DNA of 64,000 nucleotides from Candidatus Woesebacteria bacterium GW2011_GWB1_33_38. GTDB taxonomy: Bacteria; Patescibacteriota; Microgenomatia; UBA8517. Below, piece after piece: positions 2,780-48,983 of this stretch. The notes below the pieces were generated by a model that was not told the DNA's origin, made no database searches, and saw nothing but the letters and a program-made list of their open reading frames with translations. Made by a program: the position numbers and the translations under genes. The stretch lies in the NCBI GenBank assembly GCA_000990005.1, contig LBPF01000006.1, positions 33,615 to 97,614 of the forward strand. Reading direction: 5' to 3'. Positions within the stretch are counted from its first letter, which is position 1; each line of letters starts with the position of its first letter.

Positions 2780-2783
2780 ATAA

Positions 2784-3317
2784 TCAAATTTCTATTTCTT
2801 CCCACTCATCATTTTTGTCTAATTTGTAAAGTTTTTTCTTTTGTTCAAGAAGTCTATCTACAAATAATTTTCCATTCAAATGATCAATTTCATGCAAGAT
2901 TATTTGAGCATTAAATCCATTAAATTCCTCAATGATCTCTTTTTGGTTTTCGTCCAAATATTTTAGTTTTACTGTATCCTCTCTTTTTAATGGTCCGTAA
3001 TAATGGGGTAGTGATAGACAGCCCTCTAGTATCTCAGATTTAGCCTTTTTGTTACGGGTTACGGGTAACGAGTTATTAATTTCTAAAATCTTGGGATTAA
3101 CAACAACTCTTTTTAAGTTTTTGAAGTTGGTTACAAAAGCTCGTAAATTTATGCCTATCTGGGGTGCAGCAAGACCAACTCCTTCAGGATCATTTTGAAT
3201 TGCTAGCGTGTCTTTCAAGTTTTGAATTAAAGCTATTATCTTTTTGTCAAATTTATCTACGGGTTTACTAATCTCTCTTAGTTTTTTCTCTCCTGACTGG
3301 ATAATTTTTTGTATCAT
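2784..3317 (-). CDS. def: Peptide deformylase
   Basis: GLAAPQIG, EGCLS and HEIDHLNG motifs. Confidence 0.9.
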   Translation of the reverse strand: MIQKIIQSGEKKLREISKPVDKFDKKIIALIQNLKDTLAIQNDPEGVGLAAPQIGINLRAFVTNFKNLKRVVVNPKILEINNSLPVTRNKKAKSEILEGCLSLPHYYGPLKREDTVKLKYLDENQKEIIEEFNGFNAQIILHEIDHLNGKLFVDRLLEQKKKLYKLDKNDEWEEIEI

Positions 3318-3326
3318 GTGAAGCTA

Positions 3327-3533
3327 TTATATATCAATTTTGGCATCTTTGAGAATTGACATTGTAATACCACGACCCAAATCACTTCCTTTATGAACAG
3401 GGACACTCACAATAACTTTTTTGACTGAATGGTAAAAAATATTATGACTTCCTTCAGTTCTTGATAATCTGAATCCATCCTTCTTCAAAATTTTAATTAA
3501 CTTTCTCGCATTAAAAACTGCCATTTTAGGCAT
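3327..3533 (-). CDS. hicA: HicA-like mRNA interferase toxin
   Basis: 68 aa, KK…GF……GSH…H pattern of the HicA/YcfA family; overlaps the upstream hicB-like gene. Confidence 0.65.
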   Translation of the reverse strand: MPKMAVFNARKLIKILKKDGFRLSRTEGSHNIFYHSVKKVIVSVPVHKGSDLGRGITMSILKDAKIDI

Positions 3534-3792
3534 AAGAAAAACTTTGATTTTTAGTGAAAATTTTACTCAGATCAAATGTTTCCACACTTTCTAAACCTTC
3601 ATCTTTAGTTATTGTTTGATTTTCACTTTGTAAAACTTTTAAATACCCAGTAATTGCTTCTCTGATGTTGCTTTTAGCTTCTTCAATTGTTTTACCTTGC
3701 GAATGGCAACCAACAAGAGAAGGTACGTATGCATGATAATATTTCCCATCCCTTTTTATAATAATTCTATATGTAAGAATATTTGTGTCCAT
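3526..3792 (-). CDS. hicB: HicB-like antitoxin (UPF0150)
   Basis: 88 aa; YHAYVPSLVGCHSQGKTIEEA matches the HicB N-terminal RNase-H-like fold; its stop overlaps the hicA start by 8 nt. Confidence 0.65.
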   Translation of the reverse strand: MDTNILTYRIIIKRDGKYYHAYVPSLVGCHSQGKTIEEAKSNIREAITGYLKVLQSENQTITKDEGLESVETFDLSKIFTKNQSFSYA

Positions 3793-3814
3793 GTTTGAAT
3801 TATATCATATCAAA

Positions 3815-5590: not shown

Positions 5591-5690
5591 GTAAAGGAAA
5601 ACTATTTTGTTAAATTCAAAAAGTTCTGATGTTGTTTTAAAGAAAAGAAGTGGAATAAAGGCGAATAATATGTTAAAAAGTACAGGAATC

Positions 5691-6761
5691 ATGTCTATTT
5701 TTAAAAGTATACCAAATCCAGTAAATTTAATCCTAGGGTTTTTCTCAACTGACTTAGGAATTGATCTAGGAACAGCAAACACACTTGTTTATATTAAAGG
5801 TAAAGGTGTTTCTGTTCGTGAACCATCAGTGGTTGCCAGAAACAAAAAGACCAAGGAGATTTTGGCAATTGGATCAAGTGCTAAAAAGATGTTAGGTCGA
5901 GCTCCAATTTCTATTGAAGTAATCAGGCCTTTGAAAGATGGAGTTGTTGCTGACTTTGATGCAACCGCCTCAATTCTTCTTCATTATATTAAAAAAGTTC
6001 ATGAAACTGGAGGAAACATACCTAAAATTCCTAGGCCTCATGTTATAGTTGGAATTCCGTCGGGAGTTACAGACGTTGAACGAAGAGCTGTTGCTGACGC
6101 TTGTATGGATGCAGGATGCAGGCGAGTTGATTTAGTTGAAGAACCAATGGCTGCTGCAATTGGAGCCAATTTAGAGGTTAATTCTCCTGAGGGTAATTTC
6201 ATAGTGGATATTGGTGGTGGAACCTCTGAAATTGCTGTTATCTCTTTGGGTGGGACAGTAATTGGAAAATCTTTACGTGTTGCGGGGGATGAAATGGATG
6301 AGGCCATTATTAACTACGTTAAACTTAAATATTCACTTCTGTTGGGTCAACCATCTGCAGAAGCGGTGAAAATTGCAATTGGTTCGGCAATAAGTTTAGA
6401 GAAGGAAAAATCTCATGTTATAAGAGGAAGAGATTTGGAAAACGGGCTTCCTAGGTCAATAAAAATAACAGACAGTGAGATTAGAGAAGCATTAGGGCCT
6501 ATTATTCACGAAGTAATCACAGCTATATCAGATGTGTTAGAAGAAACTCCACCTGAACTTGTGAGTGACATAATGGAAAGAGGGATTTATTTAGCAGGTG
6601 GTGGCGCAATGATTCATGGAATTGATAAAGCAATTTCTGATGCAACCAAAATGCCAGTATATATTGCAGAAGATCCTCTAACCTGTGTAGTTCGAGGTTG
6701 TGGAATGCTTTTGGAAAACCCAACACTTCTTAATAGAATTAGAATTACAAAAGGACTATAA
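5691..6761 (+). CDS. mreB: Rod shape-determining protein MreB
   Basis: The listed ORF starts at 5607; the start is taken at M29 (ATG 5691, AGGA 3 nt upstream) to avoid overlap with the divergent membrane-protein gene; the sequence from DLGIDLGTANT onward matches MreB. Confidence 0.85.
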   Translation: MSIFKSIPNPVNLILGFFSTDLGIDLGTANTLVYIKGKGVSVREPSVVARNKKTKEILAIGSSAKKMLGRAPISIEVIRPLKDGVVADFDATASILLHYIKKVHETGGNIPKIPRPHVIVGIPSGVTDVERRAVADACMDAGCRRVDLVEEPMAAAIGANLEVNSPEGNFIVDIGGGTSEIAVISLGGTVIGKSLRVAGDEMDEAIINYVKLKYSLLLGQPSAEAVKIAIGSAISLEKEKSHVIRGRDLENGLPRSIKITDSEIREALGPIIHEVITAISDVLEETPPELVSDIMERGIYLAGGGAMIHGIDKAISDATKMPVYIAEDPLTCVVRGCGMLLENPTLLNRIRITKGL

Positions 6762-6780
6762 CAAGTAGTATTATAGATTC

Positions 6781-8271
6781 ATGCAGACATATGCTTCAAC
6801 TAAGCAAAATCAATCTTGGTTTTCGTGGTTTTTACGAGGCGTTTTAATTTTGGGGTTTTTAATTTTAGTAGGCAGGCTTGTTGAACTTCAAATAATAAAG
6901 GGTAATTTTTATAGAAACTTATCTGAAGGAAATAGAATTGAAAGAATTAAAATACCAGCTCAAAGGGGAAAGATTTTGGCTCGTGGTGGGGAAGTTTTGA
7001 CAGGATCTGATTTTTCTCATATCACGGGTTATTTAGCAGAAACTAATGAAAACGAAGTGGGTAAAATTGATCCTAATTGTATAGAAAAAGGCCCTTTTAA
7101 ATTAGGTCAGATTGTTGGTCGAGGAGGATTACAAGAAAGATATAATTGTATTTTGTCTGGCATAGATGGAGAAGAACTAATTGAAGTTAATAGTCTGGGA
7201 GAAAAAATAAGAGAGATTGGTATTAAAAAGCCCGTCACAGGAAGCGACGTAAAAACTAATATTGATTACAATTTACAAAAAACTATTGCAAAAGAAATGG
7301 AAGGAAAACTTGGATCAGTTGTGGCAACAGACAAAAAAGGGCATGTTTTGTCTTTATTTTCATCTCCAACTTTTGATCCAAATGACATACAAAAGGCACT
7401 TACCGATTCACAATTACCGCTTTTTAATAGAGCAATTGGAGGCTTGTATCACCCTGGTTCTATCTTTAAGCCTTTAGTTGCAATTGTAGCCCTTGAAGAT
7501 AAAAAGATAGATGCCGATTTTAGGTTTAACGACACAGGGGTAGTAACAGTTGAATCAATTTATGGAAACTATTCATATACTAATTGGTACTATACCCAGT
7601 ATGGTGGAATGGAGGGGGAAGTTGATGTAACCCGTGCTCTTGCCAGATCAACTGACACTTTTTTTTATACGATCGGAGAGCGTGTGGGCATTAATTTACT
7701 TGTTGATTGGATGAAAAAATTTGGGTTAACAAAATTAACGGATATTGATTTAAATGGCGAAGTTTTATCTTTAATCCCTTCACCAGACTGGAAAGAAAAA
7801 GTAAAAAAAGAAAAATGGTTTTTGGGAAATACATATCACTTTTCAATTGGTCAGGGGGATTTGGCTACGACTCCAGTTGGAATCCATAGAGCAGATTTGA
7901 CTGTTTTAAATGGCGGTAAACTTTGTAATTTGAAAATTGTTGGAGATACGACTTGCATAAATTTAACGACGAAGTCGGTTACTTTAATTAAAAATTTAAA
8001 ATTGGTAGAAGAAGGAATGAAAATGGTGTGTCAGACTGGGGGTACTGGTTATACTTTTTTTGACTGGGAAACCAAACATAATGGTCAAAATGTACTTTGT
8101 AAAACAGGTACTGCAGAAACAAATGAGGATAATAAAACTCATGCTTGGTTTATTGCATCCTTAGATGATTTAGTCTTAACTGTAATGGTGGAGAAATCGG
8201 GAGAAGGTAGTAAAGTTGCTGGACCTATCGCTAGAAGTATTTTTGATGATTATTTTAAGGTCCGACCTTGA
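6781..8271 (+). CDS. mrdA: Penicillin-binding protein 2 (class B transpeptidase)
   Basis: N-terminal transmembrane segment, SIFK (SxxK), SxN-like and KTGTAE (KTG) motifs. Confidence 0.8.
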   Translation: MQTYASTKQNQSWFSWFLRGVLILGFLILVGRLVELQIIKGNFYRNLSEGNRIERIKIPAQRGKILARGGEVLTGSDFSHITGYLAETNENEVGKIDPNCIEKGPFKLGQIVGRGGLQERYNCILSGIDGEELIEVNSLGEKIREIGIKKPVTGSDVKTNIDYNLQKTIAKEMEGKLGSVVATDKKGHVLSLFSSPTFDPNDIQKALTDSQLPLFNRAIGGLYHPGSIFKPLVAIVALEDKKIDADFRFNDTGVVTVESIYGNYSYTNWYYTQYGGMEGEVDVTRALARSTDTFFYTIGERVGINLLVDWMKKFGLTKLTDIDLNGEVLSLIPSPDWKEKVKKEKWFLGNTYHFSIGQGDLATTPVGIHRADLTVLNGGKLCNLKIVGDTTCINLTTKSVTLIKNLKLVEEGMKMVCQTGGTGYTFFDWETKHNGQNVLCKTGTAETNEDNKTHAWFIASLDDLVLTVMVEKSGEGSKVAGPIARSIFDDYFKVRP

Positions 8272-8872: not shown

Positions 8873-10821
8873 AATTAATAATTGTTGAATCACCGACTAA
8901 AGCTTCTACATTATCCAAGTTTTTGGGTAGCGACTATGAAGTGGATTCGACTCGTGGCCACATTAAAGACCTGCCCAAGAGCAAGTTAAGTATTGATATA
9001 GAACATAACTTCAAACCTGATTATCAAGAAATAGAAAAGAAAAAGTCAGTAATTAAAGACTTGAAGTCAAAGGCAAAAAATGCCAGTGAAGTTTATATTG
9101 CGACAGACCCTGACAGAGAAGGAGAAGCAATCGCTTCACACGTGCAGCAGATATTAAGTGACAAAGATATAAAGTTAAAAGTGGAAACACATAGAATTTC
9201 ATTTCATGAAATTACTCAAAAAGCAGTTGAGGATGCAATATTCAATCCTTCCAAAGTAAATAGAAACCTTGTTGATGCACAGATTGCAAGGAGAGTTTTG
9301 GATAGACTGGTTGGTTATAAACTTTCCCCGCTTCTTTGGAAAAAAGTAAGACGTGGCTTATCAGCTGGAAGAGTGCAATCAGTTGCTGTAAGGCTTATTG
9401 TTGACCGCGAAATGGAAATAAAAGCTTTTAAACCAGAAGAGTACTGGGAAATTTTTGCAAAATTTACTAAATTTACAGCACAGTTAATTAAGCAAGAGAT
9501 ACATAATAAAACTACTGCTGATAAAATTCTTTCTGATTTAGAAAAAGCTACATATAAAGTTTCTGATGTAAAGAAAAGACAAATTACAAAACACCCTTAT
9601 CCACCTTTTACCACTTCAACACTAACACAAGCTGGATCAAGGCTTTTTGGCTGGAGCGCTAAAAAGACAATGAGTGTAGCTCAAAAATTATATGAAGAGG
9701 GTTTAATTACCTATCATAGAACTGATTCCTTAAACCTCTCGGCTGATGCTGTGAACCTTGCTCGAGGATTTATTGAAAAAGAATATGGAAAAGAATATTT
9801 ACCAGAAAAGCCACATTTCTATAAGACGCATAGTAAATCTGCACAAGAGGCGCATGAGGCCATCCGTGTAACGGATGTGAGCCGTGAATCGTCAACAGTG
9901 AACAATGAACAAGGGGAACAAAAACTTTATGATTTGATAAGAAGAAGGTTTTTAGCAAGTCAAATGAATCCTGCCGTTTACGATGAAACTACAATAAATG
10001 TGTTGGCAAGTTCGCGAGTTGTGAGTTACAAGTTAAGAGCTTCAGGACAGATAATGAAATTTGATGGTTGGAGAAAATTGTTTCCAGTCAATCCCACATC
10101 GGGAGTGGGCTTTGACTCTCCAGATGTGAATTTATTACCTGAGGTTGTAAAAGATGAATCTTTGGACAAAGAAAAGGTCTGGGCAGATCAAAAATTCACT
10201 TTAGCTCCTCCACGATATAATGAAGCTTCACTAATTAAAACACTTGAAAAACTGGGGATTGGAAGGCCTTCCACTTATGCACCAATTATTACAACAATTC
10301 AAGTTAGAAGTTATGTGGAAAAAGTTGATAAAGTATTCATTCCCACAACAATTGGTTTTGCTGTAACAGAATTTTTGGTTAAAAATTTTCCAACAGAACT
10401 AGATTTTGGTTTTACAGCGGAAATGGAGGAAGATTTGGATAGGATTGCAGAAGGAAAAATAAAATGGGAAACTGAGATGAAAAAGTTTTGGACTCCCTTT
10501 GAAAAGAAATTAAAATCTGTTGAAAAAACAGCAGAAAGGGTAAAAATAGAAACAGAAAAGTTGAACATTAAGTGTCCAGATTGTAAGGATGGGGAGCTTG
10601 TCATAAGAGTTGGAAGATTTGGAAAGTTTATCAGTTGTTCTAGATTTCCAGACTGTAAGCATACTGAAAAGTTTTTAGAAAAAGTAGGGATTAAATGTCC
10701 TGACTGTAAAGAAGGTGACATAATTGTAAAAAAGAGTAGAAAAGGAAAGTTTTATGGCTGCTCAAGATATCCTGAATGTAAATTCGCTTCTTGGAAACTG
10801 CCAAAAAAAGAGGAAAAGTAG
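8869..10821 (+). CDS. topA: DNA topoisomerase I
   Basis: MKLIIVESPTKA Toprim N-terminus; C-terminal C4 zinc-ribbon repeats (CPDCKDGELV, CPDCKEGDII). Confidence 0.9.
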   Translation: MKLIIVESPTKASTLSKFLGSDYEVDSTRGHIKDLPKSKLSIDIEHNFKPDYQEIEKKKSVIKDLKSKAKNASEVYIATDPDREGEAIASHVQQILSDKDIKLKVETHRISFHEITQKAVEDAIFNPSKVNRNLVDAQIARRVLDRLVGYKLSPLLWKKVRRGLSAGRVQSVAVRLIVDREMEIKAFKPEEYWEIFAKFTKFTAQLIKQEIHNKTTADKILSDLEKATYKVSDVKKRQITKHPYPPFTTSTLTQAGSRLFGWSAKKTMSVAQKLYEEGLITYHRTDSLNLSADAVNLARGFIEKEYGKEYLPEKPHFYKTHSKSAQEAHEAIRVTDVSRESSTVNNEQGEQKLYDLIRRRFLASQMNPAVYDETTINVLASSRVVSYKLRASGQIMKFDGWRKLFPVNPTSGVGFDSPDVNLLPEVVKDESLDKEKVWADQKFTLAPPRYNEASLIKTLEKLGIGRPSTYAPIITTIQVRSYVEKVDKVFIPTTIGFAVTEFLVKNFPTELDFGFTAEMEEDLDRIAEGKIKWETEMKKFWTPFEKKLKSVEKTAERVKIETEKLNIKCPDCKDGELVIRVGRFGKFISCSRFPDCKHTEKFLEKVGIKCPDCKEGDIIVKKSRKGKFYGCSRYPECKFASWKLPKKEEK

Positions 10822-10834
10822 TATCATTAATTTA

Positions 10835-11173
10835 ATGTTTATTGTTGAGTTTTATAAATCTCCAAATGGAAAAGAAGTTGTAAAGAAAACATATTTCGAG
10901 TATTCAGACAAACAAAGAGCTAAGATTGCAAAGTCAATGGCAAATCTTAAAGAATACGGAATAAACCAAGCCATTGCAAACTTAAGGAAGTTGTTAGGAA
11001 CGCACCTTTGGGAATATAGAATTCTTGGTAAGGACAATATTCGGATTATTTGTGTGTCTTTACCAAGTAACAGAATAATGGTTCTGCATATCTTTACCAA
11101 AAAGTCACAGAAAACTTCAACAAAAGATTTAAAAACCTCAATTGAACGGTATAAACTTGTACTTGACAAATGA
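10835..11173 (+). CDS. RelE/ParE-superfamily toxin, HigB/Gp49-like
   Basis: …LWEYRILGKDNIRIICVSLPSNRIMVLHIFTKKSQKTSTKDL… matches the Gp49/HigB-type toxin pattern; the start is moved to ATG 10835 to clear topA. Confidence 0.6.
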   Translation: MFIVEFYKSPNGKEVVKKTYFEYSDKQRAKIAKSMANLKEYGINQAIANLRKLLGTHLWEYRILGKDNIRIICVSLPSNRIMVLHIFTKKSQKTSTKDLKTSIERYKLVLDK

Positions 11174-11198
11174 TATCCGATCGAATATCATACATTTT

Positions 11199-11480
11199 AT
11201 GTTAAAAGGAACTAATTTTGATGACATCTTAAAAGAGGAGCTAAAAAATCCTAAATTTAATAAAGAATGGGATAAATTAGAGCCTGCTTATCAGGCACAA
11301 AGGATTTTGATTCAATCAAGAATCAAGGCAAAAATGTCTCAACGGCAATTGGCTAAAAAGGCAAAAACAACTCAAGCAATAATTTCACGTATTGAAAACA
11401 TGACAATAAATCCTTCAATTGGTCTTCTTCAAAAATTAGCCACAGCTTTTGGAAAAAGATTAGAGATTAATTTTAGTTAG
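11199..11480 (+). CDS. XRE-family HTH antitoxin (HigA-like)
   Basis: MSQRQLAKKAKTTQAIISRIENMTINPSIGLLQKLATAFGKRL is a Cro/C1-type HTH; it lies immediately downstream of the toxin. Confidence 0.6.
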   Translation: MLKGTNFDDILKEELKNPKFNKEWDKLEPAYQAQRILIQSRIKAKMSQRQLAKKAKTTQAIISRIENMTINPSIGLLQKLATAFGKRLEINFS

Positions 11481-13009: not shown

Positions 13010-13495
13010 TTATTTGTACTTTACTGTTTCAGTGGAGATAAACTCTAATTTAATTTTCGCTTTTTTAAACATGCTTTCTGATTCTTGTCCTGCATGGTAT
13101 TTATTTGCAGCTACAACTCTTAGAATGCCAGTATTAATGAGTAACATTGCACAAGTTCTACAGGGAGTCATGTTTACGTAAACTGTAGAACCTTCAAGTG
13201 AAACACCTCTTTTAGCAGCTTGGCAAATAGCATTTTGTTCCGCATGAACTGTTCTTACACAATGTTCAGTAATGGTTCCGTCCTCGTGAATTATCTTTTT
13301 TAATTGATGTCCAACTTCATCACAATGTGGAAAACCAACAGGTGAACCTGCATAGCCAGTTACTAAGATTTGTTTTTCTTTGACAAAGACACAAGAAGCA
13401 TGGCCTCTATCACAAGTTCCTCGCTTGGATACGGTTTGCATTATTTCCAAAAAGTATTTATCCCATGATGGGCGGACATTTTTCAATTTCTTCAT
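13010..13495 (-). CDS. dCMP/cytidine deaminase family (ComEB-like)
   Basis: HAEQNAI and PCRTCA zinc-binding motifs. Confidence 0.8.
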   Translation of the reverse strand: MKKLKNVRPSWDKYFLEIMQTVSKRGTCDRGHASCVFVKEKQILVTGYAGSPVGFPHCDEVGHQLKKIIHEDGTITEHCVRTVHAEQNAICQAAKRGVSLEGSTVYVNMTPCRTCAMLLINTGILRVVAANKYHAGQESESMFKKAKIKLEFISTETVKYK

Positions 13496-14009
13496 ATAAC
13501 CTTTCTAAACTACCATCATTATTAAATAAATGATCGCTCATTTCAATACACTTTGGAAGGTTTTGTGCATTGGGATCAGTATTTTGCATCTCTCTTTCTT
13601 CTTGTTTTGTGAATTCATCAAAAGTTACAGAGTCTTTTTCAGATTGCCTTTTTTGAATTCTTTCATATCTTGTTTTTTGATCAGCAGTAATTGCAAACAT
13701 AATTCCGCCATGTGATTTAATAAACTCAGCCTCTTTTGGGTTTCTGATACTTTCAATGATTGAATTCTCTTTCTTTTTGCTTGCCTGGTTAAACAGCTGT
13801 TGTGTAATGTAGTCTGGTCCAAACTTTTCGCGCAGTGCATTGCCGACATCCTGAAGGTTGGCTCGGTTTATTTCTAACCCACGCTTTATTAATTCTTCTT
13901 TTAGAAAACCACTCACGGAATAGTGTATGAAGCCTTTGTTTTTAACTAAATATTCAACAATAGTTCCTTTCCCAGCTCCCAAAGTTCCAGTAATACCAAT
14001 TATTTGCAT
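13458..14009 (-). CDS. P-loop nucleotide kinase (adenylate/cytidylate/dephospho-CoA kinase-like)
   Basis: GITGTLGAGKGT Walker A at residues 5-16; small-kinase size; overlaps the deaminase start by 38 nt. Confidence 0.5.
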   Translation of the reverse strand: MQIIGITGTLGAGKGTIVEYLVKNKGFIHYSVSGFLKEELIKRGLEINRANLQDVGNALREKFGPDYITQQLFNQASKKKENSIIESIRNPKEAEFIKSHGGIMFAITADQKTRYERIQKRQSEKDSVTFDEFTKQEEREMQNTDPNAQNLPKCIEMSDHLFNNDGSLERLYEEIEKCPPIMG

Positions 14010-33201: not shown

Positions 33202-33447
33202 ATGGCCAATAAAAATAAAAGGGAAATTGTATATGCATTTATAGACAGCCAAAATTTAAATTTAGGTACAGGTAAAGATATTGTTAAGAATGGAAGGTTG
33301 GTATACAAAGGTTGGAAACTAGATTTTAAAAGATTTAAAAAGTATCTGACTGATAAATTTAGAGTTACTAAGGCATTTTTGTTTATTGTTTTTATCAAAA
33401 AACAAACTTATTTTGAACCAAAAAAAATCGGAGGGCGTTGCGAATAG
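33202..33447 (+). pseudogene. Truncated NYN/LabA-domain gene remnant
   Basis: REIVYAFIDSQNLNLG resembles the NYN N-terminal motif (compare KKTFLYIDGTNL in the intact paralog at 39885..40511); the ORF ends after about 60 domain residues amid poly-A runs. Confidence 0.35.
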
Positions 33448-37819: not shown

Positions 37820-38728
37820 TCAGATATTGTATCGTTTTTTCTTGATTTCGGCAATGCCTACTCCAACAATTGCAATTACTCCACCAATTATAAGTTGTGA
37901 GGTTATTTTATCGCCCAACAAGAGTAAAGCAAATACAGCTGAAATTGCAGGATGAATATAGGAGAAAAGCGCAGCTTCTGAAAGTTCAATTGTTTTTTGC
38001 GCTTTTGCATTCAAATAATATGCTAAAGTTCCAGAAACAAAAGCCATGTATACCACCCCCAGGTGGTAAGGAAATGGGGTATAGCGAATAGCGTATAGGG
38101 TTTCGGATATAGAAGAATTAAACAAAACAAAAGGCAAAGTAGTTAAAAAACCAACGACAAATGACAGGTTAATCAAGAAAAATGGCTCATGCCCCTTTTT
38201 TAACAATGTTTTAGTCAAAAGTCCCGACATTGCTCCACAAAGAAGTGATCCTAGTATTAATATATTTCCTATCAATCGGTCAGGGCCATGGTCATTTGAA
38301 GTTATAGGTTCAACTGCAATAACAAGAGAACCAAAGAAAGCAATTAATATGCCTATTTTTTCGCGTTTTGTAACATGGTCGTGTAAGAAAAAATAACCAA
38401 ACAAAATCATTAAAATTGGTCCTAAAAGAGAAAGTAAGCTCATGTCAAGAAGTGTTGTTTTGTCTGTTCCCAAAAAGAGAAGTCCAAGTGTGGCTGTAGA
38501 ATTTAAGAAACCATAAAGTAGAAGTAACCAAAAATTCTTTTTAAGGTTATATAGTTTGGGAAGTAAAAAGGGTAGTGCAAAGATTGAAGCTATTAAAAAT
38601 CTATAAGTTATAAATAAAAGTGGGGGAATACCGTTTAGGGTTAATTTAATAACAGGACCTGCAATTCCCCAAATTAGGGCAACTCCAAGGAGCATCAAAT
38701 AGGCCTTTACTCTAGGAGTAATTTGCAT
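37820..38728 (-). CDS. DMT-superfamily (EamA) transporter
   Basis: Ten predicted transmembrane segments, duplicated EamA halves. Confidence 0.7.
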
Positions 38729-38875
38729 ACTTCATCAATTGTAACTTTCTTTTGTTCTTTTGTCTGCAAGTTTTTTAGAGTAACAATTTTATTTTCTACC
38801 TCGTTTTGACCAATAATAATTACGTACGGAATACCTTTTTTATCTGCATATTTTAGTTGTTTATCAAGCTTAGTG
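38707..38875 (-). other. hisS: HisRS anticodon-binding domain coding segment in a shifted frame (no start codon)
   Basis: Manual translation: …[56 protein letters not shown]…. Confidence 0.6.
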
Positions 38876-38881
38876 TTAGGA

Positions 38882-39853
38882 TCAGGGTAAATTTCCGAGT
38901 TTATTTACTAAAACTTTAGTATTAACTTTATCTACCTTGATTAATCCTAATTCATCGGCTGCCTCAACGGTTCTATCAAAACCAAAAGCAATTCCTGTTG
39001 CTGGCATATCAAGGCCTGTTAATCTTTTCATCATCCCGTCGTAGCGTTCACCACCACCAACAGAACCTACTTTGTAATCCTCGATGACGATTTCCCATAT
39101 TGGACCTTCCGAATATGAAAATGATCTGGCAAGGGTAGGTTCGAAACGATAAAACTCACGACTAAAACCTGACTTCTCTAAATATGCAATAATTATTTTT
39201 ATAGTTTCATCTGGTTTTATTTGAGAGACAAATTTTAAGTATTCCTTAGCTTTTGAATTAGAAATTCCTTTTTTGATCATGTCTGTTATTACCCCTTCTG
39301 GACCTATCTTTTTCAACTTATCTATGGCAACTATTGCTTCGTAGGAGACACCTTTCATAAGATCACGATTATTAAATATGATTACAGGTTTTTTAAAACC
39401 TATGGAAAGATAAGTATCAATATTTTCTGCAATAACTTCTGCGTCAGCAGTAGGGCCAGCAACACCAAAAATATCAAGATCAAATTGTGTGAACTCTCTA
39501 TATCTTCCCTTTTGAGTATTTTCTGCTCTAAATACAGATTGAAATTGATAACGTTTGAAAGGAAAAACCAAACTGTTTTGATTGTTTGCAACAAACCTGC
39601 ATGTTGGAACTGTTTGATCATAACGAAGCATTACTTCACGATCTCCCAGATCCTTGAACTTATAAAACATTTTTTCATCTTCACCAACTTCACCTTTGAA
39701 TAGTGAATATGACTCAAGTGTTGGAGTTTCAATTGGTTCATAACCCCACCTTTCTGCGGTTTTGATCATAATATCTTTAACCCAGTTTCGTTTATAAACT
39801 TCACTGGGCAAAAAGTCCCTAAATCCTTTTAATGTTTGTATTTTACTTGACAT
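38882..39853 (-). CDS. hisS: Histidine--tRNA ligase, catalytic domain ORF; the anticodon-binding domain continues in another frame
   Basis: GFRDFLP, RYDQTVP and GGGERYDG class II motifs; the ORF stops at 38882 while the C-terminal domain is encoded in the +1 frame downstream. Confidence 0.75.
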   Translation of the reverse strand: MSSKIQTLKGFRDFLPSEVYKRNWVKDIMIKTAERWGYEPIETPTLESYSLFKGEVGEDEKMFYKFKDLGDREVMLRYDQTVPTCRFVANNQNSLVFPFKRYQFQSVFRAENTQKGRYREFTQFDLDIFGVAGPTADAEVIAENIDTYLSIGFKKPVIIFNNRDLMKGVSYEAIVAIDKLKKIGPEGVITDMIKKGISNSKAKEYLKFVSQIKPDETIKIIIAYLEKSGFSREFYRFEPTLARSFSYSEGPIWEIVIEDYKVGSVGGGERYDGMMKRLTGLDMPATGIAFGFDRTVEAADELGLIKVDKVNTKVLVNKLGNLP

Positions 39854-39884
39854 ATATCTATTTCTATATTATTATATCAATAAC

Positions 39885-40511
39885 CTACCTCGTTCGGTTA
39901 CGAACGAGGATTTTTTTGACTATTTCCAGATTTAAATCTTTTAACTTAGCTTTTGCTTTATAACTTTTGAAAAACGTTTCTTTATAATCAATAATTTTAG
40001 CGAAATTTGATTGATATGCAATTGCAATTGAAAATCTATTAGGTATAAAAATAGAATAAACTTTATATTTTAATTTTCTAACAATCTCAACTGAATACGC
40101 GAAATCAGCATCTCCTGAGACAATAATCGCAGTTTTAAATTTCTTTTGAAAAGCGTCTTTTGTTAGATCAACTGCTAAATGTACATCTACACCCTTTTCT
40201 TTTCCTGAAGTTGGTGATCTGTAGCCTTTGTAAAACACTAAATTGGGAGTTTTTAACACATCGTTAAAAAAGACCAATTCTTCTTTAATTTGTCTTTTTA
40301 TTTTCAAAACCTTTAAATTCTTAGCTGTTGATGGTGTATATGAAGCATAAAAATATATTTTGTCAAATTTATAAAGTTCTCTGAAATCACTTACGATCGA
40401 TTTAAAACTGGGTACTTTATCAAATCCAAAAATATCAATCAGCCCAGCAAGTAGATTTGTTCCGTCAATATATAAAAATGTTTTTTTATTATTTTTTCTT
40501 TTTGTAGACAT
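39885..40511 (-). CDS. NYN-domain (LabA-like) predicted RNase
   Basis: KKTFLYIDGTNL N-terminus and GKEKGVDVHLAVDL…AIIVSGDADF acidic motifs. Confidence 0.7.
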   Translation of the reverse strand: MSTKRKNNKKTFLYIDGTNLLAGLIDIFGFDKVPSFKSIVSDFRELYKFDKIYFYASYTPSTAKNLKVLKIKRQIKEELVFFNDVLKTPNLVFYKGYRSPTSGKEKGVDVHLAVDLTKDAFQKKFKTAIIVSGDADFAYSVEIVRKLKYKVYSIFIPNRFSIAIAYQSNFAKIIDYKETFFKSYKAKAKLKDLNLEIVKKILVRNRTR

Positions 40512-40529
40512 GGATTTATATTATCATCT

Positions 40530-41837
40530 TTAAGTTCCTTTTTGAACGAGTTTACGATTCCAATTTTCGGCAGCCTTTAAAATATATAAAACTGGTGGAA
40601 AGTTTTCTCTTGAACTTTTGCCTATTGTATAGTTTACATCTCTTTCTCGACGTTCTGTACTAATAAGAATTGTATTTTGATCTAATGTTCCCAAAATTAC
40701 CCCTTGAGCAGCATTACATGCCCAAATACTTCTTGTTAACTCAAGTGTCTTTTGCCTGATTTCATTTTCGGCAAATATCTTTCGTTTGGTTTGACTTTCA
40801 AATCGTCTTTCAACATCATCCTCAAATTTTTGATACCACTCTCTTGCAAAATCGTAATCTTTAAAGTTTTTAACTTTTTCTAAAATTTCCAATTTTACTT
40901 TTTGATAAACAGGATTTTCATTTGTAAGTTCCGAAATTGGTTTAATTACTATCCCTCGTGAATTTTGTAGATATTGCTTTACATTCACAATGTAATCTTT
41001 TATGTTTTGAAGATTTTTTAAATTAACTGGTCCAAATTCTCCAATTTCTGAATAATCTGTATCAGCAATATAAATTGTTAAGTTAGATTGAATCCCGTAA
41101 TATTCAAAAAAATTGGGAATAAGTAACATCTCATCAATGATAAGTGGTATGGCCTCAAGTTTTGGATTGTCAAGATAAGCATTCAGGTTCGGATTTGAAG
41201 TGTATCCACCTTTGTAATCAAATTCGTTTATAAGACAAAGCACCGTTATTAAGTTGATTTTTCCACCTTCTAATCCATTAAAAATAATTTGTTCAAATCT
41301 ATTCGAGCCCCAAATATTGTCTGTTTTTATTCTATTAATTTCATATTGAATTGAGGTTAATGTTAGTCCTTTTTCTTCATCTCCCATATCCTCGATGTAT
41401 TTAAGAAGCGATCTTTTTAGCTGACTTATCCTTTGGTTATATAAAGTGGTGTTTAAATATTTTTCAATATCTTGATCTGTAATTTTATTTTCTATATCTT
41501 TTTTAATAACTTTTTCTGCATCAGGCAAACTTAGATCAAGTTTGTCGGCAGTTTGACAAACCAATCTATTAAAATTATCTCCGTATGAATCGTTTGAGGG
41601 CGTTTGTTTTAGGTAATTAATTTTGGAATCCAAAGCTTCCCTTTTGAGTCTTTCGTATTCGTTGTCGTTAGTATTGATCCATTTTAGAATTCTTTTTGTT
41701 TCGAACTTTAAATTATCTAAAATCCATTTTTCACCTTCGTTAAGATTCTTTTTTGGTTTGCTTAGGCTCTTTGAAAATTCCGGAATTGAGGAATCTTCGA
41801 GAACCAAAAATGGTCCAAGTATTTTATGTAGTTCCAA
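40530..41837 (-). CDS. Hypothetical 435-aa protein (no recognisable domain); the only start is TTG with an in-frame stop immediately upstream
   Basis: ORF only; probably continuous with the upstream 103-aa ORF through a frameshift. Confidence 0.45.
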   Translation of the reverse strand: MELHKILGPFLVLEDSSIPEFSKSLSKPKKNLNEGEKWILDNLKFETKRILKWINTNDNEYERLKREALDSKINYLKQTPSNDSYGDNFNRLVCQTADKLDLSLPDAEKVIKKDIENKITDQDIEKYLNTTLYNQRISQLKRSLLKYIEDMGDEEKGLTLTSIQYEINRIKTDNIWGSNRFEQIIFNGLEGGKINLITVLCLINEFDYKGGYTSNPNLNAYLDNPKLEAIPLIIDEMLLIPNFFEYYGIQSNLTIYIADTDYSEIGEFGPVNLKNLQNIKDYIVNVKQYLQNSRGIVIKPISELTNENPVYQKVKLEILEKVKNFKDYDFAREWYQKFEDDVERRFESQTKRKIFAENEIRQKTLELTRSIWACNAAQGVILGTLDQNTILISTERRERDVNYTIGKSSRENFPPVLYILKAAENWNRKLVQKGT

Positions 41838-42073
41838 CTTTCAGCCCGACTTCTTATTTTTTCAATAATCTGTTTTGCAACTACAGACTTATTTTGATTT
41901 AAACGCAGAATTGTTGAATCTACTTCTAACTGAATATCTGATTTAATTGACTCTGCTAGTGATACAATTTGATTTGACCACGGAAAAAGCTGACGATCTA
42001 AAAATCGTCCAAATAACAGTTCAATATTTATGTTTTTGTTATCTTTTATTCTTTCCATTTTTATAAATTTCAT
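41762..42073 (-). CDS. Hypothetical 103-aa ORF, probably the N-terminal part of the downstream 435-aa gene
   Basis: The listed ORF 41762..42118 is trimmed to MKFIK… because its first 15 codons overlap tRNA-His; 76-nt same-strand overlap with the next ORF. Confidence 0.35.
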   Translation of the reverse strand: MKFIKMERIKDNKNINIELLFGRFLDRQLFPWSNQIVSLAESIKSDIQLEVDSTILRLNQNKSVVAKQIIEKIRSRAESWNYIKYLDHFWFSKIPQFRNFQRA

Positions 42074-42074
42074 T

Positions 42075-42150
42075 TGGGGTGGGGGAGGGGGAATGATCCC
42101 CTGATTTCGGCTCCACAAGCCGACGTGTTTCCGACTACACTACCTCCACC
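42075..42150 (-). tRNA. tRNA-His (anticodon GTG) with encoded G-1 and 3' CCA
   Basis: The reverse complement is G-GTGGAGG-TA-GTGT-AGTCGGAA-ACAC-G-TCGGC-TTGTGGA-GCCGA-AATC-AGGGG-ATCATTC-CCCCT-CCCCCAC-C-CCA; G-1 pairs with C73 as in bacterial tRNA-His. Confidence 0.7.
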
Positions 42151-42192
42151 AAACAAAAAGTCCCGTTTGTCAAAACAAACGAGATGTTCTAT

Positions 42193-42220
42193 AAAAACAA
42201 AAAGACCGCTAACCGCGGTC
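42193..42220 (-). terminator. Rho-independent terminator (GACCGC-GGTTA-GCGGTC followed by TTTTTGTTTTT)
   Basis: Perfect 6-bp GC-rich stem plus a U-tract on the minus strand. Confidence 0.6.
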
Positions 42221-42352
42221 AAAATATTTTTTATTTCCATCTCTACTTTGCGGTGACAATGGTTGACTAATTTTTACAGTTTGTCTTCTGTCTAGCATTT
42301 TGGCTAGCTCCTCCCGAATCGTGACTTCGGTAAAACGGATTTGTTAAAATGT
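42209..42352 (-). ncRNA. Candidate small structured RNA (about 160 nt from promoter to terminator), possibly encoding a 29-aa peptide (42209..42298)
   Basis: Bounded by a consensus promoter and a terminator; internal hairpins (CCGAA-GTCACGA-TTCGG; GACAA…TTGTC); a GGGAGGAG motif 11 nt upstream of an ATG. Confidence 0.4.
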
Positions 42353-42359
42353 ATTTTGT

Positions 42360-42387
42360 ATTATATCAAGAAATTCAGCCCTGTCAA
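42360..42387 (-). promoter_or_regulatory. Consensus sigma-70 promoter (TTGACA-16 nt-TATAAT)
   Basis: Both hexamers are perfect on the minus strand. Confidence 0.6.
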
Positions 42388-42401
42388 ATTTAGCTTCTGT
42401 T

Positions 42402-42426
42402 AAGGTCTGACCTTACAAGGTCGGGG
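42402..42426. repeat. Palindrome element copy 3 of 3 (AAGGTCTGACCTT-ACA-AGGTCGGGG)
   Basis: Overlaps the stop of minus-strand gene 42413..43237 and sits 15 nt upstream of the -35 of the small-RNA promoter. Confidence 0.7.
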
Positions 42427-43237
42427 CAAAGATACTTCGTAAAGAAAAAATGTCATTTTCTGCTTTTCCTGTAACAATTATTTCTTGTCCAATTTCCAAA
42501 TCTTTAACATTTGGGCCAATCCACTTTTTAGGTAGTATTATATCGTTTATTTTTGTTTTTGATATAGTTTCAATTACAATTTTCTTGGCTTCAAATTTGT
42601 TTTCTTCCATTGGAGAAGTTATTAAAATTCGTTTGGTTTTCAAAACTTTGTTTCCATTAATAAATCCCATTGCTACTATGTAATCTCCAATTGCCAAATC
42701 TGTTGATTTGACTTCCACATTTTTTTTCAAAATGTTTATATATTTTGTATCTTTTTCTGTTGAAGCCTGCTTAATCTCACCTTGAGGATCTTTAATTTGA
42801 ATTGTTTCAGCTGTTATATCTGTAACCGTCCCAACATATGAGGTAGCACCTTTTTCTGGAAACTCAGATGAAAATACTAAGTTTATTTTTGTATTATTAA
42901 TTTTAACTTCACTTAAACCTGATGGAAAAGTAACAGTAATTTCAAAAGAACCATCTTCTTTTGCTTTGCTTAAAAAATCTTTTTCTTCAGTTATTACTAA
43001 AACATTTGAATTGGGATTGGTTAATCCCGTGAGTGTGTATTCTTCATCTATTATTACATCAAAATTGGTTAGTTTATCTAAGGATACAAATAGATTTGTT
43101 TTTAGTACAGGAGTGGGTCTGGAAGTTAAAATAGGTACATCTCTTTTTATATTTTTAATAAGTCTCCAGCTTCCAAAAGCAAAAATTAGACCAATTGAAA
43201 TACCTGCAAATATGGCAAGAATTGTTTCTTTTCTCAT
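42413..43237 (-). CDS. Hypothetical membrane-anchored protein (N-terminal transmembrane segment, beta-rich ectodomain)
   Basis: ORF only. Confidence 0.45.
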   Translation of the reverse strand: MRKETILAIFAGISIGLIFAFGSWRLIKNIKRDVPILTSRPTPVLKTNLFVSLDKLTNFDVIIDEEYTLTGLTNPNSNVLVITEEKDFLSKAKEDGSFEITVTFPSGLSEVKINNTKINLVFSSEFPEKGATSYVGTVTDITAETIQIKDPQGEIKQASTEKDTKYINILKKNVEVKSTDLAIGDYIVAMGFINGNKVLKTKRILITSPMEENKFEAKKIVIETISKTKINDIILPKKWIGPNVKDLEIGQEIIVTGKAENDIFSLRSIFAPTL

Positions 43238-43827: not shown

Positions 43828-45150
43828 ATGGCTGATAATAATCAAATTAGAGTACCACCGCATAGTATTGAAGCTGAACAAAGTGTCTTGGGGGCACTAC
43901 TCCTTGATAAAGATGCAGTTATTGCTGTTGCTGAATTTTTACTTGCAGAGGACTTCTATGATGAACGTCATAATGAAATATATGAAGCCATTTTAACTCT
44001 TTATGAAGAAAGATCACCTGTTGACGTTTTAACAGTTGCAGAAAAGTTAAAGAAAAACAAAAATTTAAAAAAAATAGGGGGAGCATCATACTTAACTAAT
44101 ATTGTCAATAAAGTTCCAACTGCAGCTCACGTTGAACATTACGGGAAGATTGTCAAGGATTTGGCCGTAAAAAGAGCTTTAATGAAAGCTGCTTCAAGAC
44201 TTGTAGACTTTTCAACCGATGAAGGTATTTCTTCTGCTGAACTATTAGATAAAGCAGAAGCTGAAGTTTTTTCCTTAACCCAAAAACATTTAACTAAAGC
44301 TTTTACATCAGTCAGGGATACTTTGGCTGAAAGTTTTGATAGATTAGATGAACTTCATAAACAAGGTGAAGGTTTAAGAGGAATTTCAACGGGATTTGAA
44401 AGTTTGGATAATGCACTGGCCGGATTACAAAAAAGTAATTTAATAATACTTGCGGCGCGCCCTGGTATTGGTAAAACCTCTTTTGCATTAGGAATTGCTC
44501 AAAATGCAGCCGTCAAAAATAAAAAAAATGTTGGCTTTTTCTCTCTTGAAATGAGCAAGGAAGAGCTTGTCGATAGACTTCTTGTTGCCCAAGCAGATAT
44601 TGATGCCTGGAGGTTAAAAACAGGTAAGTTAACCGAGGATGACTTTACTAAACTTTCAAATGCCATGGGAGTTTTGGCAGAAGCTTCTCTTTATATTGAT
44701 GATACACCAGCTCTTTCAATACTTGAAATGAGAACAAAAGCAAGAAGGCTCCAAGTAGAACATGGTTTGGATTTAATAGTTGTTGATTATTTACAACTTG
44801 CAAGAAGTAGAAACTTGGAAAATAGGGTACAAGAGGTAAGTGAAATTTCTCAAGGACTTAAAAATCTCGCCCGTGAACTTAAAGTTCCTGTAATTGGTAT
44901 ATCTCAACTGTCACGCGGAGTTGAACAAAGGGGGACAAGAAAGCCCCAACTTTCGGACCTTCGTGAGTCTGGATCAATTGAACAAGATGCTGACGTTGTA
45001 ATGTTTTTATGGCGTGAAAATGAGGATGATTTTGAAAATATAATGCTTGATATTGCCAAACACAGAAACGGACCCCTTGCTTCAGTTCCATTATTCTTCA
45101 AGGGAGATAGAATCAAGTTTTTCCCGAGAGATACAAAACATACAAAATAG
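43828..45150 (+). CDS. dnaB: Replicative DNA helicase DnaB
   Basis: Walker A GIGKTS, FFSLEMS, RecA-like C-terminal domain. Confidence 0.9.
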   Translation: MADNNQIRVPPHSIEAEQSVLGALLLDKDAVIAVAEFLLAEDFYDERHNEIYEAILTLYEERSPVDVLTVAEKLKKNKNLKKIGGASYLTNIVNKVPTAAHVEHYGKIVKDLAVKRALMKAASRLVDFSTDEGISSAELLDKAEAEVFSLTQKHLTKAFTSVRDTLAESFDRLDELHKQGEGLRGISTGFESLDNALAGLQKSNLIILAARPGIGKTSFALGIAQNAAVKNKKNVGFFSLEMSKEELVDRLLVAQADIDAWRLKTGKLTEDDFTKLSNAMGVLAEASLYIDDTPALSILEMRTKARRLQVEHGLDLIVVDYLQLARSRNLENRVQEVSEISQGLKNLARELKVPVIGISQLSRGVEQRGTRKPQLSDLRESGSIEQDADVVMFLWRENEDDFENIMLDIAKHRNGPLASVPLFFKGDRIKFFPRDTKHTK

Positions 45151-47568: not shown

Positions 47569-48026
47569 TTAAAAATCCAAAACAAAGAAGCAACAACAAC
47601 ACATATCTGAGTTACAATTCCCCAAAACGGTTTGATTTCAATTTGAATTTTTCTTTCAAAATCTACCCATTTTTTAATTAATCCAAATCTTATATTATAA
47701 AAAAAGTAGGGAATTTTAATTTGATCAGGAAGTACTGATAAAGTTGAACAAACAAGGATAAGAAATGACTTATTAACATCGGGCATAAATTTATATGCCA
47801 AAAACAAAGTAAGAGCGATTGCAATCACCTCATCCGCAATTGCAATATAAGTACTTATTTTTTTAGGTTGTCCAAATTTTTGAGTTTCTGAATAAAAATG
47901 AGGATTCCAGTGGGGGACCTTGTCAAGTAAAAAATGACTTGCAAGAGATAATGGTATTGCGACCCAAGGATTTCCTGATTTGACTGCAATTGCAATCCCT
48001 AGTGCCACGTGTGGTGTTTCTAACAT
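47565..48026 (-). CDS. Membrane protein, possibly YdjM-like membrane-bound metal-dependent hydrolase
   Basis: His-rich hydrophobic N-terminus (H…HFLLDKVPHWNPH). Confidence 0.4.
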   Translation of the reverse strand: MLETPHVALGIAIAVKSGNPWVAIPLSLASHFLLDKVPHWNPHFYSETQKFGQPKKISTYIAIADEVIAIALTLFLAYKFMPDVNKSFLILVCSTLSVLPDQIKIPYFFYNIRFGLIKKWVDFERKIQIEIKPFWGIVTQICVVVASLFWIFN

Positions 48027-48619
48027 GCAAGCTATATGATATTATCTTTACGATGTTAATTGCAAATATTTTAGGAATTTTTGTCTTTTTCTATTTGTAC
48101 TGGAAGAGGTTGAAGGAAGATTATTCAAGTGAAAGAATTTTTAATGCAGGTTTTATTATAATTATTGGAGCTTGTCTTGGCTTAATTGTTGCTAAATATA
48201 ACTTTCCAAGTTTCTGGCTTTGGATAATTATTTTGTCGTTTTTAATCTCTGAAGGAATAATAGTTATCAAGCTCAAATTGAAATTCTTTGAAAGTCTTGA
48301 TGCTTTGGTTATTTCAATCTTACCTTGGTTATCCTTTTTTTATTTAACAGATTCAGTAGTTAACACAAGTCTTGCCTCATTTTTAATTTTTTGGGTTAGT
48401 TTAACTTGTATATTTATGTTTTTTCTGTTTGATCATTTCTATAGAACCTTTACTTGGTATAAATCTGGTAGGGTAGGTTTTTCTGGGCTTGCTACTTTGG
48501 GGATATTTTTTTTGATAAAGATATTGTTTCCCTCATTGTTCGTTGAAAAAATTATTTCTGGGACTATTGCTTTTATTAGTTTTTTGTTATTATTTAACCT
48601 GTCAAGACAAGATGGCTAA
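47990..48619 (+). CDS. Hypothetical polytopic membrane protein
   Basis: ORF only, six hydrophobic segments. Confidence 0.45.
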   Translation: MQSLVPRVVFLTCKLYDIIFTMLIANILGIFVFFYLYWKRLKEDYSSERIFNAGFIIIIGACLGLIVAKYNFPSFWLWIIILSFLISEGIIVIKLKLKFFESLDALVISILPWLSFFYLTDSVVNTSLASFLIFWVSLTCIFMFFLFDHFYRTFTWYKSGRVGFSGLATLGIFFLIKILFPSLFVEKIISGTIAFISFLLLFNLSRQDG

Positions 48620-48983
48620 ACAACTTACATTTCCAACTAATTTATTAAAACCAGTGGGCGACTTTTTAAAGGCTAGACTTGCTTCTTTAAAAATAAACAA
48701 AAAGAAAATTTCATCCGAAGATCCATTCAATGATAAAACAAGAGATCTTGATAATGCTGCAACTGATACAGAAGCTGAAGAACAATTTGGCCATGCACGA
48801 GTGACGGCTATTAAAGAAGAACTTAATAGAAAGTCAGCTCAAATTAAAAAAGCTCTTGCAAGAGTTAAGATTGGTAAATATGGAATTTGTGAAGATTGTG
48901 GAAAAATGATTGATACAGACCGTTTAGCAGTTTTTCCTGAGGCTACAATGTGCATAAATTGTGAGAAGAAAAGAGAAAAGTAA
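48612..48983 (+). CDS. DksA/TraR-family C4 zinc-finger protein
   Basis: CEDCGKMIDTDRLAVFPEATMCINCE. Confidence 0.7.
   Translation: MAKQLTFPTNLLKPVGDFLKARLASLKINKKKISSEDPFNDKTRDLDNAATDTEAEEQFGHARVTAIKEELNRKSAQIKKALARVKIGKYGICEDCGKMIDTDRLAVFPEATMCINCEKKREK

Follow-up and report, generated by a model that had tools for sequence, protein, structure and literature searches.

Introduction

Bacteria sense specific charged tRNAs through leader-peptide attenuation (trpL, hisL) and through T-box elements, which read either cognate codons or the tRNA as such and lie upstream of amino-acid or aminoacyl-tRNA synthetase (aaRS) genes. In prfB, a +1 frameshift site with a Shine-Dalgarno (SD)-like element, AGGGGG-UAU-CUU_UGA, contains a slow A-site stop codon that reports the level of its own reading factor. 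Here we describe a gene, termed X, from Candidatus Woesebacteria bacterium GW2011_GWB1_33_38, in which a 103-aa and a 435-aa open reading frame (ORF) are joined by a predicted −1 frameshift at a His codon. The gene is located between tRNA-His and hisS in a stretch of 64,000 nucleotides (contig LBPF01000006.1, positions 33,615 to 97,614 of the forward strand; hereafter the window, whose own numbering is used throughout).

The switch that we propose resembles attenuation and the T-box in sensing a specific charged tRNA, but its read-out would be a change of frame inside a coding sequence, and it would use a single cognate codon rather than a run of them. In comparison to prfB, a sister family of X found beside tRNA-Trp likewise has an SD-like GGAGG 2 nt before GUU_UGG and would combine a slow A-site codon with a P-site slip, whereas the codon being sensed would be a sense codon (CAU or UGG) and not a stop. 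Relative to dnaX-type −1 sites, the hairpin in the window is alike in lying 4 nt after the A-site codon, although the shift site itself, G_GAC_CAU, does not have the form X_XXY_YYZ.

A 2016 review of recoding knew of no natural hungry-codon frameshifting that yields a functional trans-frame protein (PMC5009743), and in the later literature we found no report of its natural use. Literature searches on the X family, on cyclodipeptide synthases (CDPSs) in the Candidate Phyla Radiation (CPR) or Patescibacteria, and on frameshifting in Patescibacteria returned nothing relevant. We present X as a candidate amino-acid-specific recoding switch and a candidate new aaRS-fold family within a tRNA-His/hisS operon. 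The best explanation of the data as a whole is probably that of one frameshifted gene, expressed on histidine starvation and acting on histidine or tRNA-His.

Two ORFs form a single gene with a predicted −1 frame change

The 103-aa ORF (ORF1) runs on the minus strand from an ATG at 42073 to a stop at 41762. The 435-aa ORF (ORF2; 40530..41837, minus strand) opens with a TTG in the −1 frame relative to ORF1. An initial annotation of the window had placed these two ORFs in a minus-strand series of tRNA-His, ORF1, ORF2, a NYN-domain nuclease gene and hisS, and we recovered this order with the same coordinates. Its spacings were also reproduced (X to NYN 18 nt; NYN to hisS 31 nt; a 76-nt overlap of ORF1 and ORF2 in different frames), as was its observation of an in-frame stop just upstream of the TTG, a TGA two codons before it.

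Six unsplit homologs, 507–568 aa in length, each span both ORFs in one frame, in agreement with the single gene of about 540 aa that the initial annotation had suggested; joined X is 514 aa. We compared 20 distinct X loci, labelled WIN (the window), L001, L002 and so forth, with L003 and L004 being copies of L002. Half of these loci change to the −1 frame at the same codon (WIN, L001, L002, L005, L007, L010, L012, L014, L019 and L028). The split relatives share 38–67% identity with the window protein and all belong to the Microgenomates (CPR), and the N-termini of other cluster representatives indicate that there are more split members. Alignment to the homologous unsplit proteins puts the junction at ...Y-L-D|P-F..., where GAC is the last codon of the 0 frame and CCA the first of the −1 frame; YLD|PF, the junction product, corresponds to LDPY, LEPY and LGPF in the unsplit homologs. 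The predicted trans-frame junction peptide of X is YLDPFLVLEDSSIPEFSK. On the minus strand, the N-terminal part of X comprises 87 codons in the 0 frame (41813..42073, from ATG 42073 to GAC 41815-41813) and the −1 frame part 427 codons plus the stop (40530..41813), neither of which contains a His codon. Unshifted reading would continue into a 0-frame tail (41762..41812, minus strand) of the His codon and 15 further codons before TAA, giving a 103-aa product.

Beyond the junction, the relatives differ by changes that are synonymous when read in the −1 frame and that disrupt the 0 frame, the tail of which is not conserved. Conservation of the −1 frame (GP(F/Y)) begins ahead of the candidate ORF2 starts, most loci have a stop codon in the −1 frame directly 5′ of the shift site, and L005 and L012 lack any ATG, GTG or TTG in the −1 frame around the junction. 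The two startless loci, the synonymous changes, the 5′ stops and an invariant octamer at the shift site (described below) argue against both sequencing error and independent initiation of ORF2. Sequencing error was ruled out as the source of the frame break, since 10 assemblies from different studies share it along with a conserved site and hairpin. The initial annotation had considered the frameshift to be either real or artefactual; conservation in 10 genomes favors the former and the artefact reading falls. From these comparisons we conclude that ORF1 and ORF2 are one 514-aa gene, X, with a predicted −1 frameshift that is real and conserved.

A rough neighbour-joining tree groups the split genes in a large clade, with the unsplit P0010 and P0011 nested inside and the split L019 far away. 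In P0010 and P0011 the shift site (now CUC GAU AGA) and the hairpin are both gone. The nested revertants and the distant split member suggest that the frameshift device is old and has been maintained.

Some loci contain other frame breaks. X is found in three or four frames in L011 (8001-9188) and has extra breaks in L007 (9150-9230); decay or long-read errors are the apparent cause here, in contrast to the one clean break of the other loci. In L009, X also breaks separately into the +1 frame ahead of the usual site, at ...GCC CAT TGA...; this break again falls at a His codon with a stop behind it, and as a single case it could be an error.

The proposed shift site and the downstream hairpin

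The proposed −1 shift site, G_GAC_CAU (41810..41816, minus strand), has GAC in the P site and CAU in the 0-frame A site, with CCA (Pro) entering the A site after the shift. The octamer UGGA(C/A)CAU is invariant in the 10 split genes while the adjoining codons vary, and the site is made of locally rare synonymous codons, TTG accounting for 15% of Leu codons and GAC for 25% of Asp codons in the window. In every split gene (10 of 10) the path contains a single His codon, the CAU of the shift site, and in-frame decoding of it leads to a stop 7–17 codons on. The sole conserved option for re-pairing appears to be a move of the P-site tRNA-Asp from GAC to GGA with CAU in the A site; in the L001 variant, tRNA-Glu would re-pair from GAA to GGA. 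Slippage further upstream, on AAA/GAA or UUG codons, was considered and rejected: these codons are not conserved and re-pair poorly, and there is mostly a −1 stop directly 5′.

A stem-loop, the putative frameshift stimulator, starts 4 nt after the CAU (41765..41805, minus strand) and is composed of a 6-bp base stem, GGUUCU/AGAGCC, and a 9-bp upper stem (minimum free energy (MFE) −17.9 kcal/mol, z −4.3). Hairpins of 40–55 nt are found 3–6 nt after the CAU in all 10 split genes (shuffle z −2.5 to −6.0). The equivalent region is without a hairpin in six of the seven unsplit genes (L006, L008, L009, L015, L027 and L029; z +0.85 to −1.7), L017 being the unsplit exception (z −4.3). Within the base stem, a Leu codon of the 5′ arm (CUU, UUG, CUG or CUC) always pairs with a Lys, Gln or Glu codon of the 3′ arm (AAG, CAA, CAG or GAG). 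We scored covariation of this stem on a codon-register alignment of the two arms, which replaced a MAFFT nucleotide alignment that under-reported covariation owing to loop indels. Pairing was observed in 90% of cells and compensatory changes in six of nine pairs (13 cells); none of 500 shuffles equalled this result, and slid controls gave 29–56%. An Rfam search of 38500-42500 (E ≤ 1) returned the tRNA alone, with no T-box or leader element.

A sister family in tRNA-Trp/trpS cassettes

Profile searching (E 1e-12 to 1e-3) identified a sister family, X′, of ~460 aa and without Pfam domains. X′ and X are homologs that align across 339 columns (hhalign 99.5%, E 1e-22), and the structural model of X′ (predicted local distance difference test (pLDDT) 93.9) has the same Foldseek matches as X. 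A tRNA-Trp(CCA) gene lies just upstream of X′ in all seven distinct loci, and trpS directly downstream in four of them; a fifth contig stops just past X′. In six of the seven loci an ATG is positioned 2 nt after the tRNA-Trp 3′ end (178 nt in L023), and it opens a Trp-free ORF of 19–23 codons that leads to GGAGG-UA-GUU_UGG (CUU_UGG in L023). From there the 0 frame reaches a stop 0–15 codons on, and the +1 frame is open for 458–466 codons, which encode the whole of X′ and no Trp. Three of the Trp loci have no start codon ahead of the conserved N-terminal FG motif. The predicted +1 site regions are located in L015 (reverse complement), L022 5929-6010, L023 955-1020, L024 2773-2870, L030 2187-2300, L031 798-875 and L032 2775-2900.

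The two paralogous families would shift in different directions and both have the cognate codon in the A site, and this parallel between His and Trp strongly supports the idea that the sites would sense charged tRNA. Both cassettes are present in L015 (2134-5418), where they are convergent and back to back with no aaRS gene between them: tRNA-His precedes X_His (2228-3829), and tRNA-Trp (5418-5347) precedes X_Trp (5250-3886) in the opposite direction. This X_Trp has a Ser in place of a conserved Cys (HIKSLRF). A combined His and Trp profile searched against a set of 5.8 billion proteins returned His-family members only, and no third paralog family.

In several Trp cassettes, among them L022 (7376-8863) and L024 (4245-5690), TrpRS carries an N-terminal YbaK/ProX-like tRNA-editing domain (Pfam tRNA_edit). 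A gene for a small Trbp111/CsaA-like tRNA-binding protein is found behind TrpRS (L024 5692-6054), and for TrpRS this is an unusual combination.

Avoidance of the cognate amino acid

None of the 514 residues of the predicted window X is a His. Across the His family (61 proteins, 23,992 residues) we counted 18 His (0.08%), with Trp at a normal 1.29%, and 53 of the 61 proteins are without His. The Trp family (36 proteins, 16,409 residues) has a single Trp (0.01%), with a likewise normal 1.40% of His. For the window background (14,206 residues) the values are 1.57% His and 0.87% Trp. Among the 10 split genes, none has a His in either coding part.

The adjacent synthetases share this property. HisRS has 0–1 His in 302–444 aa at 13 loci (WIN, L001, L002, L005, L007-L012, L017, L018 and L021), and TrpRS has no Trp in 329–496 aa (L022-L024). 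Neighbouring and other genes of the window have an ordinary His content (DnaB 9, EamA 6, CysRS 14), and the window CysRS retains three Cys. We take the avoidance, together with the parallel Trp cassettes, to tie X to tRNA-His and HisRS and not to the NYN nuclease.

Gene neighbourhood of X

The tRNA-His(GUG) gene (42075..42149, minus strand; ARAGORN; Rfam tRNA 53 bits) ends 1 nt before the ATG of X. As read from the sequence, the DNA encodes G-1 (at 42150) as well as the discriminator C73 and the CCA. A tRNA-His gene is directly upstream of X in 14 loci (ARAGORN) and in L027, where the 3′ part is present and the gene is cut by the contig end. In L009 it lies 2.1 kb upstream with a Mutator-family transposase gene between (5609-8000), and L017 is the only locus without an upstream tRNA-His. 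Directly downstream of X, hisS is found in 11 of the 17 loci having downstream sequence, and it follows behind NYN in two more.

In the window, the NYN/LabA-like nuclease gene (39885..40511, minus strand; Pfam NYN PF01936, E 1.2e-14) intervenes between X and hisS. The window hisS (38707..39853, minus strand) contains an intact catalytic domain, an ORF of 323 aa without His (38882-39853; TIGR00442, E 1.6e-78), with the rest out of frame to the stop at 38707. NYN is absent from 18 of the 20 distinct X loci, the exceptions being the window and L002 (likewise L003 and L004, the copies of L002). Where it is absent, X adjoins hisS or another gene. The neighbours of X include tRNA, aaRS, EamA and L31. 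The conserved partners of X are tRNA-His and hisS; NYN is not among them, having been inserted between X and hisS in a particular lineage.

The first ATG lies 0–2 nt from the encoded tRNA 3′ end (window 42073-42075; L002 4244-4247; the Trp loci), and in L002 the A of the tRNA CCA doubles as the A of the X ATG. The mRNA would be essentially leaderless once the tRNA 3′ end has been processed. In L001 and L002, ATGs preceded by an SD sequence also exist a few codons downstream, hence the true start is uncertain.

Family and predicted fold of X

A set of 5.8 billion clustered proteins contained 24 homologs of X, profile searching of 1.8 billion representatives found no more than 45, and the family is confined to Patescibacteria (Microgenomates). 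The initial annotation had recognised no domain in X, and this was borne out: neither the single protein nor the profile gave a significant match to Pfam (E ≤ 1), NCBIfam, PADLOC or PDB sequences. Gene callers annotate the second part of X as a separate protein of 425–429 aa, and over the annotated 425 aa ORF2 differs by one residue from a hypothetical protein of 'Microgenomates group bacterium GW2011_GWD1_33_9'. X genes are split or truncated in public records, such that the family is mis-annotated throughout.

We predicted the structure of the joined protein with AlphaFold2 from a 24-sequence alignment (pLDDT 88.2, predicted template modelling score 0.78). Foldseek against the PDB ranked the PIsnA/PvcA isonitrile synthases at the top (E 3e-4, ~315 columns), followed by TyrRS, CDPS and TrpRS. 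This analysis, which the initial annotation had recommended, yielded an aaRS-like catalytic Rossmann fold: in the model, residues ~260–510 form a class-Ic aaRS/CDPS/IsnA-type Rossmann domain and the N-terminal half is helical. Residues conserved throughout the superfamily are Cys280, which immediately follows the first strand (273-279), Glu307, Asp338-x-Asp340, Tyr361, Tyr390 and Glu474. Cys occupies the Cys280 column in 33 of 34 aligned sequences; its sole substitute is Ser, which two sister-family members carry. In the CDPS AlbC, the first Rossmann strand ends at Ser37, which accepts the aminoacyl group, and the S37C variant (PDB 4Q24) still forms the covalent intermediate (PMC3105412). Judged by topology, Cys280 may be equivalent in position to Ser37 of AlbC.

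We compared X to the described members of this fold. X shares the class-Ic aaRS-like Rossmann fold with the CDPSs (AlbC, Rv2275, YvmC) but is, at 514 aa with a 260-aa helical N-terminal half, larger than these 220–290-aa enzymes. The CDPS residue set Y178/E182/Y202 is not recognisable in X, which has E307, D338-x-D340, Y361, Y390 and E474 instead. In addition, X avoids its cognate amino acid and resides in a housekeeping tRNA/aaRS operon rather than a biosynthetic cluster. An hhalign comparison of the X family with four CDPS sequences gave a probability of 5.8% and a local match of 55 columns only. Relative to the class-Ic aaRSs (TyrRS, TrpRS), X lacks HIGH and KMSKS among its conserved columns, a HIGH motif being impossible because X has no His. 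It also lacks a TyrRS/TrpRS-type anticodon-binding domain, and the cassettes already contain a gene for a bona fide HisRS or TrpRS beside it. IsnA/PvcA provides the best Foldseek match with the longest span, but X is not a member of that family and has no partner Fe/2-oxoglutarate oxygenase gene nearby. The net charge and pI of X are uninformative as a hint of RNA binding.

Proposed mechanism and alternative explanations

We propose that, when His-tRNA-His is plentiful, the CAU would be decoded and translation would end 16 codons on. When His-tRNA-His is scarce, the ribosome would wait at the CAU against the hairpin, allowing the P-site tRNA-Asp to slip from GAC to GGA; CCA (Pro) would then be read and the His-free frame translated to its end. 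X would thus be made preferentially under histidine or tRNA-His limitation, beside a His-free HisRS. It is likely that frameshifting rises under scarcity of His-tRNA-His in this manner and that X is a starvation-induced product. What X does once made is more tentative. It might bind the histidyl moiety and/or the acceptor end of tRNA-His, with Cys280 performing an acyl transfer or a deacylation in the maintenance or quality control of the His-tRNA-His pool, a possibility that we raise with considerable caution.

Several points weigh against this proposal. We infer frameshifting, its efficiency and its dependence on His-tRNA-His from sequence. G_GAC_CAU is not a canonical X_XXY_YYZ heptamer and permits a single P-site re-pairing only, in which the slipped tRNA-Asp on GGA makes just a G-C and a G.U pair and is mismatched at the wobble position. 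Selection on the invariant A of CCA could concern the reading of CCA after the shift and not that of CAU in the old frame. The unsplit members of the family lack the switch, which is consequently not essential to what the family does. In the covariation score, the 3′ arms were positioned by the MFE fold of each individual sequence, which favors pairing. The region from DnaB to RF2 is syntenic across relatives, so the adjacency of hisS, taken by itself, could be inherited gene order and is weak evidence, which does not apply to the Trp cassettes and the amino-acid avoidance. Lastly, the link to the CDPSs is through the fold alone (hhalign 5.8%).

Alternative explanations can be weighed against the same data. 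X may be a CDPS-type consumer of His-tRNA-His, making a His cyclodipeptide or transferring His, with the frameshift setting a fixed ratio of short to long product. This plain consumer suits the fold but neither the avoidance nor the direction of the switch, and we regard it as unlikely: it has no obvious need to be a His-free protein, nor a plain reason for induction at a hungry His codon, and the adjacent aaRS also avoids His, which points to an action upstream of, or in support of, charging. X further shows no sequence relation to the CDPSs, is twice their size and has no tailoring genes nearby. A further option is that X is an IsnA/PvcA-like modifier of free histidine, and X′ of free tryptophan (for example to an isonitrile), working independently of tRNA. 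With no match to Pfam DIT1_PvcA and no gene for a partner oxygenase nearby, this is very unlikely, and it would leave the tRNA-X-aaRS arrangement, the cognate-codon shift sites and the avoidance unexplained.

Recoding would be unnecessary if the gene had undergone fission into polypeptides of ~100 aa and ~427 aa, or were a decaying pseudogene. Fission would accommodate the ATG or TTG at the junction in L002, L001, L007, L010 and the window, as well as the 425–429-aa protein annotated by gene callers; the non-canonical slippery site, the broken window hisS and the extra frame breaks of L011 and L007 are compatible with fission or decay. However, L005 and L012 offer no ATG, GTG or TTG in the −1 frame by the junction, GP(F/Y) is conserved before the candidate starts, the nucleotides of the site are invariant against codon-usage bias, and every split gene has a covarying hairpin that unsplit genes, among them the nested revertants P0010 and P0011, have lost. 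A pseudogene is difficult to reconcile with the strong purifying selection on both parts, which remain His-free at 38–67% identity. An absence of recoding is therefore improbable. The initial annotation had instead read X and the NYN nuclease as a two-gene, RNA-targeting defence or toxin system, which would have come to lie between tRNA-His and hisS by chance. The 18-nt spacing on the same strand, the retention of the X-NYN order in L002 and a partial match of the NYN protein to the PADLOC candidate HEC-09 (E 1.9e-13) are in its favor. Yet homologs of X almost never occur with NYN, which is missing at 18 of the 20 distinct loci; X itself has no PADLOC match, its predicted fold is that of an aaRS catalytic domain, and the His avoidance and the Trp cassettes point to tRNA-His and HisRS. 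The initial annotation had itself named a lack of co-occurrence with NYN, or a clear housekeeping fold, as refuting the pairing, and in essence both were observed. Such a pairing with NYN, largely refuted by the survey of gene neighbourhoods, is thus exceedingly unlikely.

Returning to a starvation-responsive frameshift, the His (−1) and Trp (+1) sites represent two independent, mechanistically different candidates for purposeful hungry-codon frameshifting. For the evolution of the aaRSs, X and X′ would add an uncharacterised branch of the class-I aaRS/CDPS fold that is tied to single tRNA/aaRS pairs. To our knowledge, CPR bacteria of this kind cannot make amino acids. A starvation-proof cassette, encoding proteins free of the scarce amino acid, suggests how these organisms could restart translation after famine. 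Taken at its fullest, the proposal is that these are the first natural frameshift switches to sense a specific charged tRNA via a hungry sense codon (−1 for His, +1 for Trp), and that the cassette enzymes form a new class-I aaRS/CDPS-fold branch managing His- and Trp-tRNA in starved, auxotrophic CPR bacteria; we consider this combined claim possible, though somewhat on the doubtful side.

Other features of the window and related loci

The window hisS was compared with that of L012 (80% identical, 403 aa). It has a deletion of ~22 aa, out of frame, inside the anticodon-binding domain, and the last 60 C-terminal aa (EIYPDPNTKLDKQLKYADKKGIPYVIIIGQ...) continue in another frame (minus strand, 38707-38900). 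This deletion may be a real truncation or an assembly error.

An 81-aa ORF at 33202-33447 (plus strand) has a NYN-like N-terminus, IVYAFIDSQNLNLG. The initial annotation had regarded it as the remnant of a NYN paralog, a view not sustained by our searches, which returned neither a Pfam match (E ≤ 0.1) nor a tblastn match to the window NYN (E ≤ 10).

The DnaB gene of L002 (1-2501) carries an intein bearing a LAGLIDADG endonuclease domain, which the window DnaB (43828-45150) lacks. Three other pairs of same-strand ORFs in the window overlap by 30–80 nt (10754..11173 with 11142..11480, 13010..13495 with 13458..14009, and 47990..48619 with 48543..48983), and these could be further frameshifts or ordinary overlapping genes.

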